64,000 nucleotides of DNA from Candidatus Woesearchaeota archaeon (GCA_018675975.1 JABGXB010000003.1:267821-331820); one strand, 5' to 3'; shown: positions 28,737 through 39,103, counted from the stretch's first letter. Notes: generated by a model from the sequence alone, not told the origin. A program made the numbers and translations.

Positions 28737-29189
28737 ATGGATGAAAATATAATTAAACAAAGAATAATTCAACATACCTTATCACACGCTGATGAATATA
28801 GAGGTTATTTAACTCATTCAGGATTATTTCATTTAACAAATAATTTAGAATTAATTGGAAAATATCCTAGTGGAAGATTATTTCAAGGATTTTTAGTTGA
28901 TATTCTTGCTAATGAAATTAAACCTATATCTAATACAAACAAATCTCCTTTTTTGTCTTATCAAGTTAAAAAATTAAAACCAAATAATTTTGAATCTTTA
29001 ATTCTATCAGGAAAATATACTTTATCATATGACCCTGAAAAAAAAATGGTTTATTTAAAATCTAGAGAAATTGAAAAAGTAGAAAATATGAATGCATTAA
29101 GAAATGAAGAATTTTATAGATTATCTGCAGGAATGATGGGTTATAAAAATGACATTAATCCAATGATTAAAATATTATTTGAAGAATAA
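28737..29189 (+). CDS. Hypothetical protein (first gene of the ThyX/ParB-like/kinase cluster)
   Basis: A 150 aa intact ORF with a TATA-like ctttatataat at 28706-28716. No recognised family. Confidence 0.5.
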   Translation: MDENIIKQRIIQHTLSHADEYRGYLTHSGLFHLTNNLELIGKYPSGRLFQGFLVDILANEIKPISNTNKSPFLSYQVKKLKPNNFESLILSGKYTLSYDPEKKMVYLKSREIEKVENMNALRNEEFYRLSAGMMGYKNDINPMIKILFEE

Positions 29190-29273: not shown

Positions 29274-31034
29274 ATGAATTATCAAATGAAGAATTTTTCC
29301 ACTGAGCAAACTGAATTATTAAGATCATTTCTTTTTACAGCTCCACATAGTAATGTAAGTTTAATTTATCCACAACAATTAGTTGCAGGTGAAGAACTAG
29401 CCCCATTAATTTCAGCATATTCAAGAAGCAATCAACCACTTCAAGAAAGAGTATTAGAATTTGTTGATAAACAAAAAAATACAGAAGCTAAAGCACTATT
29501 ACCACATTTACCAGAATTAATGAAAACATTTAGAAATGAAGATGGTTCATTAAAAATTAGTAAAAAAACAAGAAACTTTTCTAAAAAATGGGTTCTTGCG
29601 CACGGTCACAGTTCAATAAAAGAAATGAATTCTATTTTTGGATGTGTTGAAGGAATTTCAGACATTTGTGGAAAATTAATTACTGGACATCCTTTAGCCC
29701 ACCCTCAAGTTAAGTCATCAAGATATATTTCTTTTGAAGATACATTAGATATGGCATTAGTAGATCCAGACATTCAAAACTTATCTTGTTCAAATGAAAT
29801 TATAGAACATTTAAAAGAATTAAATACAGAATATCTTAATGCAACTAAATATTTAGCAAATGCAGTATTTAAATCTGAAGAAACTGATCAAATAAGAGAA
29901 TTTTTAACTCGAGACTCAGTATTAGATATGCATGGTGAAAAATTATTTAATCGTGCTAAAAAAAAAGATCCAGAATTAGTAAAAACTGACACATTAATAG
30001 AAGAATTAAAATCACAGGCTTATGAAAATATAAATAGTGATGAGTATGTAATGGGACAACTTGAAAAATTTGTTCTTGATAGAAGTAGAGTATATTTACC
30101 TGGTTCAACTAGAACAAGTTTAGGTTTTATGATTGATGGTAGAACATGTGAAGAAATCATTACAACATTATTAACTAGTCCTTTAATAGAAGCCCAAAGT
30201 TTTGGTAATCAAATTTGGACTGAAACAAAAAAAATCTCACCTGTTTTATTAGGAGATCAATCCCATATTAAAAAAGATGAATGGAAATATGAGTTAGATA
30301 CGGACTTTAGAAAAGAATTAGCTACACGATTAGATTATATTGTCATGCACTCTGAACAAAAATTTGGAAGAGTTTATTCACCAAGCTTTGTACATTCAAG
30401 AGGAGAAGATACAAGATCTGCAGTTATGGCTGCATATAAATATAGTGATTTTTCTTTTGATGATTTAATAGAACAATTAAAAGAAAAAGATGTTAAATGG
30501 ATTTTAGATAGAACTCACGAACATAGAAATAAATTTGATCAATTACATGAAAGTGGTGGTCATGGTGGTATGCTTACTGAAATGACTATGCCATATCATG
30601 GTTATAGAGATATGTTTAGACATAGAAAAGGAGCAAGATCTAATCAATTATATACAACAGTTCACGGTTTTGAAAATGTTGAAATTTTTAATCATTTTGA
30701 TATAAATTCAAGATATGAATTATTAATGAATAAAAATAATGAATTATTTAGAAAAGCAGCAAAAGAAAATCCCCATGCTGCACAAAAAGTTGTTGCCTTT
30801 GGTCAATTATGTAGAGCAGCACACAGTTGGTCATTAGAACAAATTGGATATATTGCAAGAATAAGAGCGAATATTGAAACCGGAAATATTAGTTATGTAA
30901 AAACTGTTCATCAAATTGTAGATGGTGTAAAAAGATTATCACCACAATTAGCATCAAAAATAAATTATAATCAAGAAATGTTTCCAGAACATATTTGGAA
31001 AGAAGGTTATGATTTATTTAGAAGTAAAAAATAA
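29274..31034 (+). CDS. thyX: Long-form (tandem-fold) ThyX-like flavin-dependent thymidylate synthase
   Basis: Motifs YSRS and HGHSSIKE (compare ThyX HGHxxxxEH) in the first half. The first half reads GHPLAHPQVKSSRY (SxRY kept, RHR lost). The second half reads FRHRKGARSNQ (RHR kept) and AHSWSLEQIGYIARIR. An AGGTG Shine-Dalgarno lies at 29264-29268. Confidence 0.7.
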   Translation: MNYQMKNFSTEQTELLRSFLFTAPHSNVSLIYPQQLVAGEELAPLISAYSRSNQPLQERVLEFVDKQKNTEAKALLPHLPELMKTFRNEDGSLKISKKTRNFSKKWVLAHGHSSIKEMNSIFGCVEGISDICGKLITGHPLAHPQVKSSRYISFEDTLDMALVDPDIQNLSCSNEIIEHLKELNTEYLNATKYLANAVFKSEETDQIREFLTRDSVLDMHGEKLFNRAKKKDPELVKTDTLIEELKSQAYENINSDEYVMGQLEKFVLDRSRVYLPGSTRTSLGFMIDGRTCEEIITTLLTSPLIEAQSFGNQIWTETKKISPVLLGDQSHIKKDEWKYELDTDFRKELATRLDYIVMHSEQKFGRVYSPSFVHSRGEDTRSAVMAAYKYSDFSFDDLIEQLKEKDVKWILDRTHEHRNKFDQLHESGGHGGMLTEMTMPYHGYRDMFRHRKGARSNQLYTTVHGFENVEIFNHFDINSRYELLMNKNNELFRKAAKENPHAAQKVVAFGQLCRAAHSWSLEQIGYIARIRANIETGNISYVKTVHQIVDGVKRLSPQLASKINYNQEMFPEHIWKEGYDLFRSKK

Positions 31035-31066: not shown

Positions 31067-31696
31067 ATGAATTTAAGTATATATAGTGAGATTCCAATGC
31101 ATCAAGTTATTGAAGAAGTTAGAAAATCCCCTATGTTAAAATCTGATACTCAATTTCCTTACAAAAATGCAAATATTAGTTTACGTAATGTCGGTATGGG
31201 TGAAATTAATCCAACAAGTTTATATGCATTAAAAGCTAATTTGGATTTTCAAAAAAACTTAAGAGAATATATATTAAATAGATTTGGTTTTGATACATTA
31301 AGATTAAGTTCTGGTCTTATATTAGAAAATAAAGATGGGGAGCGTCAAACATTAATACCTCCTATAGTTGAAGTATCAGAAAGAGAAGTTAAGTTCATTC
31401 CACAAAAAGATGAATTATCATATGAAAATTCATATAAAATAAAAATACCGTGTTTACTTGATGGTATTCATCGCGCACTATGTGCAAAAGAATTAGGTAT
31501 AGATTTAAATGTAATTTTTATTTATGATTCAGATACCAATTATCCTGTTTATGCACATCCAAATGAATGGGATTTAGTTAAAATTTGTGATAGTATACCA
31601 AAAGAAAAAAGTCAAAAAAAAATGTATTTAAGAGATGATCATTCTAGTTTGTATAAATCATTTGCACACTTAGGTTCAAGTGGTCTTAGAAAATGA
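31067..31696 (+). CDS. ParB/sulfiredoxin-fold (ParB N-terminal domain-like) protein
   Basis: Signature LIPPIVEV...IPCLLDGIHRALCAKELGIDLNVIFI, matching the DGxHR core of ParB-NTD-like domains. Its stop overlaps the next start (ATGA). Confidence 0.6.
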   Translation: MNLSIYSEIPMHQVIEEVRKSPMLKSDTQFPYKNANISLRNVGMGEINPTSLYALKANLDFQKNLREYILNRFGFDTLRLSSGLILENKDGERQTLIPPIVEVSEREVKFIPQKDELSYENSYKIKIPCLLDGIHRALCAKELGIDLNVIFIYDSDTNYPVYAHPNEWDLVKICDSIPKEKSQKKMYLRDDHSSLYKSFAHLGSSGLRK

Positions 31697-32850
31697 GTAA
31701 TTTAGTTTTAGTTGAAGGAATAAGTGGAGCTGGTAAAAGTACAGCAATTAATTTTATTCAATCTTATCTTTCAACATTCAATATTCAAAGTCACACATTT
31801 AATGAACCCGGTCATATGCGAGATGAAATTAAAAAATATCATAATAGAGAAGACAGAGATCTTCAATTAGAATTTGATCATTATGTTTTATCCAGAAAAG
31901 TTGATTTACATCATAAAGTAATGCCAACTATAAAAAATCACCCAAAGGATACTATCCTCATTGATCGAAGTTGGATTTCTACAATGGTTTATCAACAAAC
32001 AGAACAATGTCCAATGATAAATATTCGTGATTATCATTCCTTTTATCCCAAACACAATTTAGCATTACTCTTAATTTGTGATCCTGAAACTGCATATCAA
32101 AGAATTTTAAAAAGAAAAGAAACTCAAGGAATAGAATTAAGTACATCTGAAAATCCAAAAAGAATTGCTGAACTTAGAAAAAGTTATATTGAAGCATTTG
32201 ATTTAGTAGATTATTCTGTAATTATTAATACTGATGGAAGTGAAAATGCAGTTAATTGTATTTTAAAATCTTATATGAATAAATTATTAGGAATTAAAGA
32301 AAAAAAAATTGTTTTTTTAGATAAAGATGGTACTTTAGTTGACAATTCTAAATATCCAGAAGTAATTCCAACGGATGAAATTCTTTTTGCAGATACATTA
32401 GAAGGATTATATAAATTAAAAAGTGCAGGATATGAATTTCATATGATTTCTTCTCAACCATGGGTTGCTAAAGGTCAATTAAGTTTAGATCAAACAAATG
32501 AAATTTTTGAAAGTGTTATAGAACAATATAAAAAATATGGAATTGAATTTACTGGATATGGTTTTTGTGAACATCATAGAAGTGATAATTGTCCAGATAA
32601 AAAACCAAATACAGGTTTATTAGAACAAATAGCAACTCAACAAAATATTGATATTTCTCAAAGCTTTTTTATAGGAGATATGGAATCGGATATTGAATGC
32701 GGTTATAATTTTGGATTACAAACTGGATTAGTAACTAAATATTCAAATGCAAAAACAATAGATAATTTATCTCAACAAAGATTTAAAAGAACTCCAAATT
32801 ATACTGCAATTAATTTGAATGAAATTGCAAATCAAATAATTGAAAATTAA
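31693..32850 (+). CDS. Fusion protein: thymidylate-kinase-like P-loop kinase (N-terminal) plus HAD-IIIA phosphatase (C-terminal)
   Basis: The N-terminal half has VEGISGAGKST, NEPG and LIDRSWISTMVYQQ (Tmk-like). From about residue 205 it has FLDKDGTLV, ISSQP, CEHHRSDNCPDKKPNTG and IGDMESD (GmhB/PNK-3'-phosphatase-type HAD). Confidence 0.75.
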   Translation: MSNLVLVEGISGAGKSTAINFIQSYLSTFNIQSHTFNEPGHMRDEIKKYHNREDRDLQLEFDHYVLSRKVDLHHKVMPTIKNHPKDTILIDRSWISTMVYQQTEQCPMINIRDYHSFYPKHNLALLLICDPETAYQRILKRKETQGIELSTSENPKRIAELRKSYIEAFDLVDYSVIINTDGSENAVNCILKSYMNKLLGIKEKKIVFLDKDGTLVDNSKYPEVIPTDEILFADTLEGLYKLKSAGYEFHMISSQPWVAKGQLSLDQTNEIFESVIEQYKKYGIEFTGYGFCEHHRSDNCPDKKPNTGLLEQIATQQNIDISQSFFIGDMESDIECGYNFGLQTGLVTKYSNAKTIDNLSQQRFKRTPNYTAINLNEIANQIIEN

Positions 32851-33154: not shown

Positions 33155-33604
33155 ATGAAATGCCCACATTGTAATTCAGATGATTTGAAAGTAAATGAAA
33201 CAAGAGAAACAGAATCAAATAGTTTTAGAAGAAGAAGAGAATGCAATAATTGTGAAGAAAGATTTACTACATATGAAAAAATTCAAGAATTATTAATTAG
33301 TGTAAAAAAAGAAAGTGGAAAATTAGAAAATTATACTAAAGAAAAATTAGAAAAAAGTTTTTTGATTGCTTGTAATAAAAGACCAATAACAAGAATTCAA
33401 ATATTAAAAATTATTGAAAACATTGAAAATAAAATAAGAAATAATTTTAAAAATGAAATTTCATCTAAGACATTAGGTGAATATGTAATGGAAGAATTAA
33501 AAATTTTAGATCCAATATCATATATTAGATATGCTTCAGTATACAAAGATTTTGATGATTTAGATAAATTTAATCAAGAATTAATATTATTAAAGGTGAA
33601 TTGA
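33155..33604 (+). CDS. nrdR: Transcriptional repressor NrdR
   Basis: N-terminal zinc ribbon CPHC...CNNC with ERFTTYE, followed by an ATP-cone. About 150 aa. It sits immediately upstream of the RNR gene. Confidence 0.9.
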   Translation: MKCPHCNSDDLKVNETRETESNSFRRRRECNNCEERFTTYEKIQELLISVKKESGKLENYTKEKLEKSFLIACNKRPITRIQILKIIENIENKIRNNFKNEISSKTLGEYVMEELKILDPISYIRYASVYKDFDDLDKFNQELILLKVN

Positions 33605-36600
33605 ATGGAACAAAGTATTGAAACAAAACGAACTGGTATAAAAGTTAAAAAAGTTTTTTGTAGTGATAATATAAGCCCATTTGAAACTGTTGAATTTGAA
33701 AACAGATCAAGTGTGATAAAAAATAGAGATGGTTCTATATTATTTGAAATAAATAATATTCATGCTCCAAAAAAATGGTCGCAAGTTGCCGTAGATATAA
33801 TGGCACAAAAATATTTTAGAAAAAGTGGAGTTCCACAATATGATGAAAATCAAAATGAAATTAAAGATGAATTTTCAAATATAATTACAGGTTCAGAAAC
33901 AGATATTACTCAACCAATAAAAAGATTAACTGGATGTTGGAGACATTGGGGAGAAAAATATAATTATTTTGATACGCAACAAGATGCAATTAATTTTGAA
34001 CAAGAAATACAATATATGTTATTACATCAAATCGCTGCACCAAATAGTCCACAATGGTTTAATACGGGACTTAAATGGGCATATAATATTTCTGGAAGTG
34101 CACAAGGACATTATTATGCTGAACATGAAACAGGTGAAATTAAATTATCTGAGGATGCATATTCAAGACCTCAACCGCATGCATGTGCGGATTATTATAC
34201 ACAAGTGTATACTGATAAGGGTACAATGTATATTGGAGATATAGTTGAAAATAATTTAACTAATATAAAAGTATTTGATGGAGAAAAATATGTAAAAGTT
34301 CTTGCAATCAAAAACAATGGAAAAAAAGAAGTGTTTAAAATTCAATTAAAAAATGGAAATTATATTAAATTAACTCAAGATCATTTAGTGCTATCATCAC
34401 AAAAAAGAAAAAAAAATGGTGGAAATTATAACTGGAATTATGTAAAAGATGTAAAATTAGGTCACAAATTACAACAACCATTAATTCTAGATATTAAAGA
34501 AAAAAATGTATTTAGTGATGATTTAGCAAAAGCAAGATTAGCCGGTTGGATAGTTGGAGACGGATCAGTTGGAATTTATGAAAATGTAATGAGATTGGAA
34601 ATTATTTCTATTAAAGAAGAAGAATTTGAATCAATAATAAATGATATTCAAGAAGTATTTGGACAAGAAGTTAATTTTTGGATTAGTAAATTTAAAACAA
34701 AAAACGAAAATTTAGATGGTAAAAGAATTCATTTAGCAGGTAAAAAAATACATAAATTAATTGAAGACTATGATTTACTAAAATCTTCATTTAATGCAGA
34801 AGTACCTCAAAAAATAATTAATGGGTCACCACAAGAAAAAAGAGAATTTTTAAAAGCCTTATTTCAAGCAGATGGTTGTGTCAGAATTAGAAAAGATGAA
34901 AATAGAAATTCAGGAGATGTGTGTTTAACTACAATTTCAGAAAATCTTTCATTTGGAGTTTTACAATTATTAAATTCATTAGGTATTTATTGTAGAATTA
35001 ATAAATATAGTGATAAAAGAGAAAATCGAAAAGATGTTAATCAAGTTATAGTATCTTATGGTAGTGCAAGAGAACAATTTCAAGAACAAATTTCTTTTAT
35101 ATGTTCTCAAAAAACCGAAAAATTAGAATTATTAAATAAAATTATAACAAAATCAAAAACACTTCCATTAATAAGAGAAGAAACAATTATTTCAATTGAA
35201 TCTGAAGGCATTAAAGATGTTTATGATATTCAAACAGAATCTTCAAAATTTCTTGGAAATGGAATTGTAATACATAATTGTTTTATTCAATCAGTTAAAG
35301 ATGATTTAGTTAATCAAGGTGGAATATTTGACCTTTGTACAAGAGAGGCAAGAATATTTAAATATGGTTCTGGAACTGGTTCAAATTTTTCACAATTAAG
35401 AGGTCAGTCTGAAAAATTATCAGGTGGTGGAAGATCTTCAGGTATGATGTCATTTTTAAAAATATTTGATGTGGCAGCTGGAGCAATTAAATCAGGTGGT
35501 ACAACAAGACGTGCAGCAAAAATGGTTTGTCTTGATTTGGATCATCCAGAAATTATTGAATTTATTGATTGGAAAGCAAATGAAGAAAAAAAAGTTGCTA
35601 ATTTAATTACTGGTTCAAAAAATTCAAAATATCATTTACAAAAAATATTAAAAGAAGCAAGTTCAAATTCAAATATAGAAAAAAATCCAAAATTAAAATC
35701 AGCAATTAAAGAAGCTATTGAACAAAATATTTCTTTAAATTATATTGATAGAGTTTTAAAACTTGCAAATCAAGGAATAACTGAATTTGAAACTCCCGAG
35801 TTTGATAATCATTTTGAAGGTGAAGCATATTCTACAGTTAGTGGACAAAATTCAAATAATTCAATAAGAATACCAAATTCATTTTATGAAGCTGTTCATA
35901 AAGACTTAGATTGGAATTTAAAAAATAGAACTGATGGAAAAATTTCAAAAACTGTAAGAGCAAAATGGCTTTATGATAAAATTGGACAAGCTGCTTGGGC
36001 TTGTGCAGATCCTGGTGTTCAATTTGATACGACAATTAATGAATGGCATACATGTCCAAAAGATGGAAGAATTAATGCAAGTAATCCTTGTTCTGAATAT
36101 ATGTTTTTAGATGATACTGCATGTAATTTAGCTAGTATTAATTTAATTCATTTTATTAATGATAGTGGACATTTTAATGAAGAAAAATTTGCTCATGCAT
36201 GTGAACTTATGACAATTGTTTTGGAAATTTCAGTTACTATGGCTCAATTTCCAAGTGATGAAATTGCAAAAAGAAGTTGGGAATATAGAACATTAGGTTT
36301 AGGTTTTGCAAATTTAGGGACATTACTCATGGTTAAAGGAATTTCTTATGATAGTGATGAAGCTAGAAGTATAGCTGGAGGAATTAGTGCCATAATGTGT
36401 GGAACTGCTTATGAAACATCTGCTAAACTCGCAAAACATCTAGGACCTTTTAACAGATATGAACATAATAAAGATGACATGTTAAGAGTTATTAGAAATC
36501 ATAGACGTGCTGCATATAATGTTTCAAATGAAGAGTATGAAAAATTAGAAATTACTCCAGTTGGCATTGATGAAAATTTATGTCCAAATAATATTTTACA

Positions 36601-38146
36601 AAAAGCTAGAAATTCATGGGATAATGCACTTGAACTTGGACAAGAATATGGATTTAGAAATGCACAAGTAACTGTTATTGCACCAACCGGAACTATTGGA
36701 CTTTTAATGGATTGTGATACTACAGGAGTTGAGCCAGACTTTGCAATTGTTAAATATAAAAAACTTGCAGGCGGTGGTTATTTTAAAATTGTAAATCATT
36801 CAGTTATTAAAGCATTGAGAACTTTAGGTTATGAAAAAGATCAAATTATTGATATTAAAAAATATTGTATAGGTCATCAAACATTAGTGGGTTGTCCAAC
36901 CATAAATCATAAAATTTTAAAAGATAAAGGATTTGATGAAGAAAAATTAGAACTTATTGAAAAACAATTAGAAACTGCATTTGATTTGAGTTTTGTTATG
37001 AATAAAAATATTTTAAGTGAAGAATTTTTAAAAAAATTAGGATTTAGTGATGAACAATTAAATTCTGAAATGTTTGATTTACTAGAAGAATTAAAATTTA
37101 CAAAAGAACAAGTTGATATTGCAAATGAATATGTTTTTGGAACAATGACAGTTGAAGATGCTCCATACTTATTAGAAGAACATTATTCAGTTTTTGATTG
37201 TGCAAATAAATGTGGAAAAAAAGGTAATAGATATATTGACACTTATGGACATATTAATATGATGGCAGCAGTTCAACCTTTTATTTCTGGTGCAATTAGT
37301 AAAACAATTAATATGGATTCAGAAGTTAGTGTTAAAGATATTTTAGATGCTTATGAAGCTAGTTGGAAATTAATGCTTAAAGCAAATGCATTATATAGAG
37401 ATGGATGTAAATTAAGTCAACCATTAAATACTGCTGTTTTTGAAAGTGAATACAATTTAAATTTATCTGAAGAAGATATTGATGAAACAGTTGATTCAGC
37501 AGCAATTCAACAACAAATTCAAACAATGAAAGCAAATCAGTTGCCGAGAAAAAGAGGTGGTTTTGTTCAAGAAGCAACTGTTGCAGGTCACAAAATATAT
37601 TTAAGAACTGGTGAATATAATGACGGAAAATTAGGTGAAATTTTTATTGACATGTATAAGGAAGGTGCTGCCTTTAAAGCACTAATAAATTGTTTTGCAG
37701 TTGCAATAAGTAAATCTCTACAATTTGGTGTTCCTTTAGAAGAATTTGTTGAACAGTTTACATTTACTAGATTTGAACCGGCAGGTTTAGTAACTGGACA
37801 TGAATATATTAAAAATTCTACGTCAATATTAGATTATGTATTTCGTGTTCTAGGCTATGAATATTTAGGTAGAGATGATTTAATTCATGTAAAACCTAAA
37901 AGAAAACCACTAGACATTATAGAACATGAAGATGATCCAAGAGATAAACATAAAACACTAGATAGTTTTTCTAATAGAAAAAATGTAGAAGAGACTAGAA
38001 ACGAAATGCTTTTTAAAAAAATTAATACTGCCAAATCAAGAGGATATACTGGAGAAGCATGTGGTTCTTGTGGTAGTATGAGAGTAAAAAGAAATGGAAG
38101 TTGTACACTTTGTGAAGATTGTGGTTCTACTAGTGGTTGCAGTTAG
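33605..38146 (+). CDS. nrdJ: Class II (adenosylcobalamin-dependent) ribonucleotide reductase, interrupted in frame by one intein
   Basis: Blocks [24 protein letters not shown] active-site region, [27 protein letters not shown], and a C-terminal Cys-rich tail CGSCGS...CTLCEDCG. The protein is 1513 aa including the 365 aa intein. Confidence 0.9.
34184..35278 (+). mobile_element. Intein with LAGLIDADG homing-endonuclease domain inside nrdJ
   Basis: It begins with Cys (PQPHA|CADYY) and ends with HN followed by Cys (GIVIHN|CFIQSV). The two LAGLIDADG blocks are [11 protein letters not shown] (34538-34570) and [11 protein letters not shown] (34850-34882). Removing the insert restores the conserved HACFIQSV extein sequence. 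Confidence 0.85.
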
Positions 38147-38590: not shown

Positions 38591-39103
38591 TTAATTCAAT
38601 TTATTACATAAATAATTAAATTCAGTACAGAAAAGTTCCAATCTTTCAATTATTTGATCATTAATAATTTCACTACCACTAATATCATTATATGTTGAAT
38701 AAACAAATCTTGGTAAAATAATACATCTAAAATCTAACATTAAGCTATTTACAAATGATAATGGTGCCATATAAGAACTTGAACCACCTGCAGAACATAA
38801 AATGCCAATTAATTTTTCACTTAAAGATTTTCCTGCAAGTTCAATTACATTTTTTGCTGAGCTATTAATATTATAATTATAAATTGGAAGTGCAAAAATC
38901 ACCCCATCTGCATTTTCAATTTGTTTTTTTAATTCAATTACATTAGTAAATTCATAACATTTCCCTGCATCACACATTGGCAAATCAAAATGAAATAAAT
39001 CGATAAATTCAATATCACAATCTAATCGAGATTTAACATATTTTGCAAGAATTCTACTTTTACTATCTTTATTTAAGCTTGTAGATATAATTAAAACTTT
39101 CAT
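38591..39103 (-). CDS. NAD(P)H-dependent FMN reductase (flavodoxin-like fold)
   Basis: Pattern MKVLIISTSLNKDSKSR...ADGVIFALPIYNYNINSSAKNVIE, typical of the FMN_red family. Confidence 0.7.
   Translation of the reverse strand: MKVLIISTSLNKDSKSRILAKYVKSRLDCDIEFIDLFHFDLPMCDAGKCYEFTNVIELKKQIENADGVIFALPIYNYNINSSAKNVIELAGKSLSEKLIGILCSAGGSSSYMAPLSFVNSLMLDFRCIILPRFVYSTYNDISGSEIINDQIIERLELFCTEFNYLCNKLN

Follow-up and report, generated by a model that had tools for sequence, protein, structure and literature searches.

We found that a 586-aa protein encoded in a 64-kb window of Candidatus Woesearchaeota archaeon DNA (the window being the whole stretch that was analysed, 64,000 nt) carries two ThyX folds in tandem, an architecture that is established by sequence comparison. 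The protein is a divergent new member of an already documented and annotated family of domain-duplicated ThyX proteins. It is quite probably a functional flavin-dependent thymidylate synthase of this long type, in which two chains would form a pseudo-tetramer with two live and two dead sites. It would thus be a largely ordinary housekeeping enzyme; it overturns nothing known, and the half-site reading is a sensible one that should not surprise a specialist.

Two ThyX folds in one chain

The thyX open reading frame (Table 1) is preceded by the ribosome-binding site GGTG, 7 nt 5′ of its ATG, in a window with a G+C content of 18-29%. The Pfam Thy1 profile (PF02511) matched only the N half (aa 96-324), with 40 bits against a gathering score of 24.8 (E 4.6e-10). 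The C half gave no direct Pfam Thy1 match in this protein, and the more typical relatives show two Thy1 stretches each. The protein did not reach the cut-off of the NCBIfam thyX equivalog TIGR02170 (26.9 bits against 87.9), and the match to it was limited to aa 105-157.

Table 1. Features of thyX, of its surroundings in the window and of related loci
Feature	Position	Strand	Observation
150-aa ORF just upstream of thyX	28737..29189	+	no family match
thyX, tandem (two-domain) flavin-dependent thymidylate synthase, 586 aa	29274..31034	+	ORF ends coincide exactly with the stretch named in the original prediction
N-terminal ThyX domain, aa 1-335	29274..30278	+	hhalign to TM0449, 94% probability; conservation table
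HGHSSIKE, aa 110-117	29601..29624	+	H112 = Tm His53, S114 = Tm Thr55, E117 = Tm Glu58; H112 95% and S114 98% conserved
GHPLAHPQVKSSRY, aa 138-151	29685..29726	+	GHP in place of RHR; S148/R150/Y151 = Tm Ser88/Arg90/Tyr91
Helical insertion, aa ~202-245	29877..30008	+	gap analysis of the 182-sequence alignment; helices in the model
R272 (= Tm Arg147) to R290 (= Tm Arg165)	30087..30143	+	N-half nucleotide/FAD-phosphate binders kept; R272 100%, R290 94-97% conserved
C-terminal ThyX domain, aa 336-586	30279..31031	+	hhalign to TM0449, 95.5% probability
YRDMFRHRKGARSNQL, aa 444-459	30603..30650	+	R445/D446 = Tm Arg74/Gln75; R449/H450/R451 = RHR; L459 replaces Ser88
R531 = Tm Arg174 (uracil-binding arginine)	30864..30866	+	C half only; 98-99% conserved
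ParB-CE domain protein (ParB/Srx-like, DGxHR motif)	31067..31696	+	Pfam PF24392, E 1.8e-14
Thymidylate kinase (Tmk) fused to HAD-IIIA phosphatase	31693..32850	+	Pfam and NCBIfam; 4-nt overlap with the ParB-CE stop
NrdR-type repressor, zinc ribbon and ATP-cone	33155..33604	+	
Class II ribonucleotide reductase, 1,513 aa, TSCPD domain	33605..38146	+	directly downstream of NrdR
NADPH-dependent FMN reductase (PF03358)	38591..39103	-	
ParB-CE directly downstream of clade thyX, related loci	L001 7782-8435; L002 7733-8383; L084 6767-7417; L085 6763-7431; L086 6770-7435; L087 6692-7330		
Second gene for thymidylate kinase, broken into two ORFs (119 and 110 aa)	L085 4209-4884	-	immediately upstream of the thyX module
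Chlamydiae-type long ThyX	L070 3962-5587	+	N-half HGH replaced by YGDDS

The halves were compared with ThyX by hhalign, using a family alignment of 182 sequences and, as the reference, the TM0449 sequence, which was checked against PDB 1KQ4. The N half (aa 61-333) aligned with TM0449 residues 3-210 at 94% probability (E 9e-8), and the C half (aa 363-577) with residues 10-217 at 95.5% probability (E 1.4e-8), while the N half aligned with the C half at 93% probability (E 3e-7). The 182-sequence profile was required for this result, as a shallow profile of 36 DPANN sequences gave only 0.5-4.5% probability. Because the halves align with TM0449 and with each other, and because the Pfam Thy1 stretches are paired in relatives, the protein is assigned a two-domain fold. 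The ThyX alpha/beta fold is present in both halves, which places the protein in the ThyX/FDTS superfamily, and the separate alignments of the halves to TM0449 upheld the original prediction in showing that both are homologous to ThyX and that neither has a complete catalytic set. A BLASTP match of half against half (E 1e-5) was dropped as evidence for duplication, since its register (N-half aa 162-271 with aa 299-414) disagrees with that of the fold, and it was taken as compositional.

Searches of the PDB by phmmer with the protein and by hmmsearch with the 36-sequence DPANN profile gave no ThyX match. The PDB also held no tandem ThyX structure, and the best coverage of the model by any solved chain was a TM of ~0.24. 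The only full-length structural match that was found is the thymidylate synthase of Microcystis phage LMM01 (491 aa, BFVD A0A7D4), another tandem ThyX, with a Foldseek E of 3e-13 and a TM of 0.56/0.65 over 594 alignment columns. Compared with the protein studied here, the LMM01 enzyme is viral, shorter and 15% identical, and its existence shows that the duplicated form circulates in viruses too.

The duplicated form is widespread. A profile search of 1.84 billion representative proteins returned 2,589 clusters at E <= 1e-3 and 1,369 at E <= 1e-10, and the best 150 of the matches are mostly 470-570 aa long with two matched stretches. In a genome scan, long ThyX was found in bacteria (Sorangium, Chloroflexus, Roseiflexus, Fischerella, Westiellopsis, Calothrix, Prochloron, Chlamydiae, Armatimonadota, Binatia and Acidimicrobiia) and in archaea (Methanosarcinales and many DPANN lineages), and the named long relatives are annotated as FAD-dependent thymidylate synthase. 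The long proteins of Chlamydiae, Chloroflexi, cyanobacteria, Myxococcota, Armatimonadota and other DPANN (~480-560 aa) are homologous to it from end to end and have two Thy1 domains; their identity to the present protein is only 20-24%. All 64 close homologues are ~560-600 aa long and divide their motif in the way described below. Those with a source name come almost throughout from DPANN archaea, with one labelled Patescibacteria. This DPANN clade of ~590 aa is longer than other long ThyX (median 590 vs 524 aa), and a 42-aa helical insertion is peculiar to it, being absent from long ThyX of ~524 aa.

The relatives found in Chlamydiia/Chlamydiales (Chlamydiae) have ThyX of the long form, and we take C. 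trachomatis ThyX, at ~529 aa, to be of the long type. The C. trachomatis protein was assayed as an NADPH oxidase (PMC3498832), and chlamydial ThyX sequences were omitted from early phylogenies because they share too little identity (PMC6171736). Valas and Bourne (2009) noted that most Chloroflexi ThyX have a domain duplication that 'has not been characterized' (PMC3224940), and our search of the literature on tandem ThyX found nothing beyond this remark. Domain-duplicated ThyX is hence already in the literature, a point that the original prediction missed.

Division of the catalytic residues between the halves

A complete RHRx7S(xRY) motif is absent from either domain and is obtained only across both halves, and all the other residues of known function are partitioned as well (Table 2). 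The claim that the first half keeps HGHSSIKE and the SxRY end of the motif and has lost RHR was borne out, as was the claim that the second half keeps RHR and has lost the distal Ser and RY. RHR is found once in the whole protein (aa 449-451), within FRHRKGARSNQL at aa 448-459. A 2004 paper by Liu and Yang on 'distinctive ThyX motifs' may have described split motifs before.

Table 2. Equivalents of T. maritima (Tm) ThyX residues in the two halves, in T. maritima numbering and taken from the hhalign alignments
Tm residue	N half	C half
His53	H112	F421
Thr55	S114	not conserved
Arg74	K134	R445
Gln75	not conserved	D446
Arg78/His79/Arg80	G138/H139/P140	R449/H450/R451
Ser88/Arg90/Tyr91	S148/R150/Y151	L459/Y460/T461
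Arg147	R272	Q504
Arg165	R290	E522
Arg174	T298	R531

Conservation was tabulated for 182 long ThyX, made up of 67 from the DPANN clade and 115 others. In the N half, the equivalents of Ser88, Arg90 and Tyr91 are conserved at 99-100% (Tyr at 99% in non-DPANN sequences), Arg147 at 100% and Arg165 at 94-97%, and within HGHxS the equivalents of residues 53 (His) and 55 (Ser) at 87-95% and 98%. In the C half, Arg78 and Arg80 are conserved at 98-100%, His79 at 91-92%, Arg74 at 94-100% and Arg174 at 98-99%. The reciprocal positions are substituted in the DPANN clade and in other long ThyX alike, so that the long ThyX of other lineages, with which a comparison had been proposed, show the same partition between halves in the 115 non-clade sequences. 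Since the split is fixed in the DPANN clade and in the other long ThyX, the division of the motif therefore appears, from these alignments, to be ancestral to the whole long ThyX family and to be maintained by purifying selection. It is thus not peculiar to this gene and belongs to a very large annotated family, which had been overlooked, and the term 'decay' used originally is misleading for a pattern that is fixed and under purifying selection across the family. Recent decay or a pseudogene was ruled out by the intact ORF and by the fixation of the pattern across domains of life.

The segment that replaces RHR in the N half is itself conserved in the DPANN clade (G138 97%, H139 91%, P140 94% and Q145 100%). 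The C half of this clade, unlike that of most other long ThyX, has further lost the equivalents of Asn163 and Arg165 (aa 520 and 522 of the window protein), which are kept by 58% and 71%, respectively, of non-DPANN long ThyX. As these two C-half residues of the non-DPANN proteins would point into a site that is predicted to be dead, the 'dead' site of bacterial proteins may be less dead. In Chlamydiae-type long ThyX (L070, P0099, P0164, P0184 and P0201) the N-half HGH is changed as given in Table 1, so that the equivalent of His53, the folate-stacking histidine, is Asp, as it is in 12% of non-DPANN long forms.

The lack of a complete ThyX motif in either half alone would also be expected of a pseudo-enzyme that has no catalytic activity and acts in regulation or as a scaffold, for example one that binds nucleotides or serves as a partner of ParB-CE. 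This explanation is extremely improbable, however, because the complementary residues are 94-100% conserved across bacteria, archaea and a phage, as selection on a composite catalytic site predicts.

A predicted half-site enzyme

Canonical ThyX/FDTS proteins (TM0449, M. tuberculosis Rv2754c and those of H. pylori and PBCV-1) have one domain of ~220-250 aa that holds the whole RHRx7SxRY motif, and their tetramers have four identical sites. In contrast, the protein studied here has two diverged domains per chain, and two sites per dimer are predicted. PolB (PDB 4P5A), a UMP/dUMP C5-methylase of polyoxin biosynthesis, is likewise a single-domain homotetramer with a complete motif and was a poorer match than true ThyX.

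In the M. tuberculosis and H. pylori enzymes, subunit A of a site provides RHR and Arg199 (Tm Arg174), subunit B provides Ser71 (Tm Thr55) and Arg190 (Tm Arg165), and subunit C provides Gln103 (a backbone contact), Ser105, Arg107 and Tyr108 (Tm Glu86, Ser88, Arg90 and Tyr91) (PMC6514825). In PBCV-1 ThyX, Gln75 and Arg182 (equivalent to Arg174) are on one monomer and Ser88, Gln89 and Arg90 are on the other (PMC3498832). In the present protein and its 181 relatives, the residues with the A role are conserved in the C half only, and those with the B and C roles in the N half only.

On this basis, the two ThyX folds of one chain would act as a pseudo-dimer, and two chains would form a pseudo-tetramer equivalent to the canonical homotetramer. 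The C half would supply Arg74, Gln75 (here Asp), RHR and Arg174 to a live site, the N half of one chain would supply His53, Ser55 and Arg165, and the N half of the other chain would supply Ser88, Arg90 and Tyr91. Arg147 is kept in the N half only, and no source was found for its subunit role. A dimer would then have two complete sites for FAD, dUMP and folate, or one per chain, which would convert dUMP, CH2-H4folate and NADPH to dTMP, and two reciprocal sites that would be without all of the assigned residues and would be dead. The assignment was derived from 222 symmetry with the sites written as (A;B;C), (B;A;D), (C;D;A) and (D;C;B), where A and D are C halves and B and C are N halves; sites 1 and 4 would be complete, and sites 2 and 3 empty. 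The original idea that a fused pseudo-dimer keeps a subset of the composite sites is supported by this subunit-by-subunit mapping. The partition argument rests on ~5 independent segments with roles known from the literature, for which the chance of self-consistency is ~1 in 16, and it is supportive rather than conclusive. We infer the oligomeric state, the stoichiometry of two sites and the catalytic activity from homology and symmetry.

Another possibility is activity at each of the four pseudo-sites, where N-half GHP and C-half L/Y/T would take over the function of the canonical residues. The high conservation of the replaced segments in the DPANN clade is in its favour, as it argues against neutral drift, but the conservation of GHP...PQ is explained by its place directly before the Ser/Arg/Tyr loop of the live site. 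Moreover, the second type of site would be without RHR, Arg174, His53, Arg165 (in this clade), Ser88, Arg90, Tyr91 and Arg147 together, and Ser88 and Tyr91 are reported to be critical for activity by mutagenesis (PMC11940539). We therefore regard four active sites as very unlikely.

The half-site reading explains why long ThyX proteins have a complete motif in neither half, and on this view they would work as obligate half-site enzymes, each chain carrying a single FAD site and a single dUMP site. Since ThyX serves as a target for antibacterial agents and the enzyme of Chlamydia seems to belong to the long type, the asymmetric architecture has some practical relevance.

A conserved gene module in the DPANN clade

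The surroundings of thyX are concerned with dNTP supply, which fits a genuine thymidylate synthase: thymidylate kinase lies two genes downstream, beyond ParB-CE, and is followed by NrdR and ribonucleotide reductase, as would suit an ordinary dTMP synthase (Table 1). No second ThyX was found in the 64-kb window. The ribonucleotide reductase contains an intein with a LAGLIDADG homing endonuclease (aa ~208-558). The 150-aa ORF just upstream of thyX had no tblastn match in 83 related loci; it is probably either confined to its lineage or not a true gene.

The order ThyX, ParB-CE, Tmk and HAD was found in 7/7 examined loci of the ~590-aa clade, with Tmk and HAD fused or as separate adjacent genes (the latter in L001, L085 and L087). 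It is kept even in clade members that are 28-32% identical and have unrelated flanks. In contrast, none of 80 loci with ordinary long ThyX of ~520 aa, other Woesearchaeota included, has the module; thyX of this clade thus always precedes these genes, and other long thyX does not. The HAD-IIIA part of the Tmk fusion is HisB-N/GmhB-like with a Cys/His zinc-motif, and the pairing of a kinase with a phosphatase hints at a dTMP substrate cycle or some step not yet known. In this DPANN clade, dTDP synthesis appears to be organised as a compact conserved module that includes one uncharacterised component of ParB/Srx fold.

An alignment of seven ParB-CE sequences showed the conserved motifs PPIVE, DGxHR, YAHPNxW and LYRDFGxLGCGAPR, of which PPIVE...DGxHR is a ParB/Srx-like signature. 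Searches of the PDB with the single protein and with the 7-sequence profile gave no sequence match, and neither a PHROG nor a phage match was found. A homologue search with ParB-CE returned no match, not even the protein itself, despite homologues of 35-40% identity in the related loci, which reflects a limit of the search and not rarity. A single-sequence AlphaFold model of ParB-CE was unusable, with a pLDDT of 33.7, and no paper was found in which a ParB-like protein is connected to the ThyX or Tmk of DPANN archaea.

The invariant partnership with ParB-CE, Tmk and HAD leaves room for a re-purposed or partner-dependent pathway. It is conceivable, though fairly unlikely, that the ThyX of this clade works only within the four-function module with ParB-CE as a new enzymatic or regulatory partner, or that the product of the module is something other than plain dTDP. 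ParB-CE might then be a nucleotide kinase or an NTP hydrolase that feeds dUMP, or might dock on the insertion or on the dead sites.

A related proposal, which we consider unlikely, is that the ~590-aa DPANN clade is a re-purposed ThyX paralogue whose pathway, shared with ParB-CE, the Tmk-like kinase and the HAD phosphatase, would serve another pyrimidine nucleotide instead of plain dTMP synthesis. Examples would be another C5 modification, a salvage route or a ribo-substrate as in PolB, whose extra loop tyrosines are said in the PolB structure paper to recognise the ribose 2′-OH. Consistent with re-purposing are the invariance of the module in all seven clade loci despite their unrelated flanks, its absence from the 80 ordinary long ThyX loci, the insertion that only this clade has, the score below the thyX equivalog cut-off and the additional split Tmk gene beside the module in L085; furthermore, phages that replace a base classically do so with just such a set of synthase homologue, kinase and nucleotidase. 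Against it, the predicted live site keeps, as in other long ThyX, all the residues through which canonical ThyX contacts uracil, FAD and the phosphate of dUMP, the NrdR and ribonucleotide reductase neighbours point to housekeeping dNTP supply, and small DPANN genomes need a thymidylate synthase, of which no other was seen in the window. Re-purposing, which had been offered originally as an alternative, is thus not needed, since the substrate contacts of the live site are unchanged relative to other long ThyX and the gene lies among dNTP-synthesis genes; a functional half-site thymidylate synthase remains our preferred reading.

Two observations on neighbouring genes were also made. The split thymidylate-kinase gene beside the module in L085 indicates that this genome has or had two Tmk copies. 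The FMN reductase gene of the window is close to the dNTP cluster but is read from the other strand; its product is a conceivable flavin-reducing partner.
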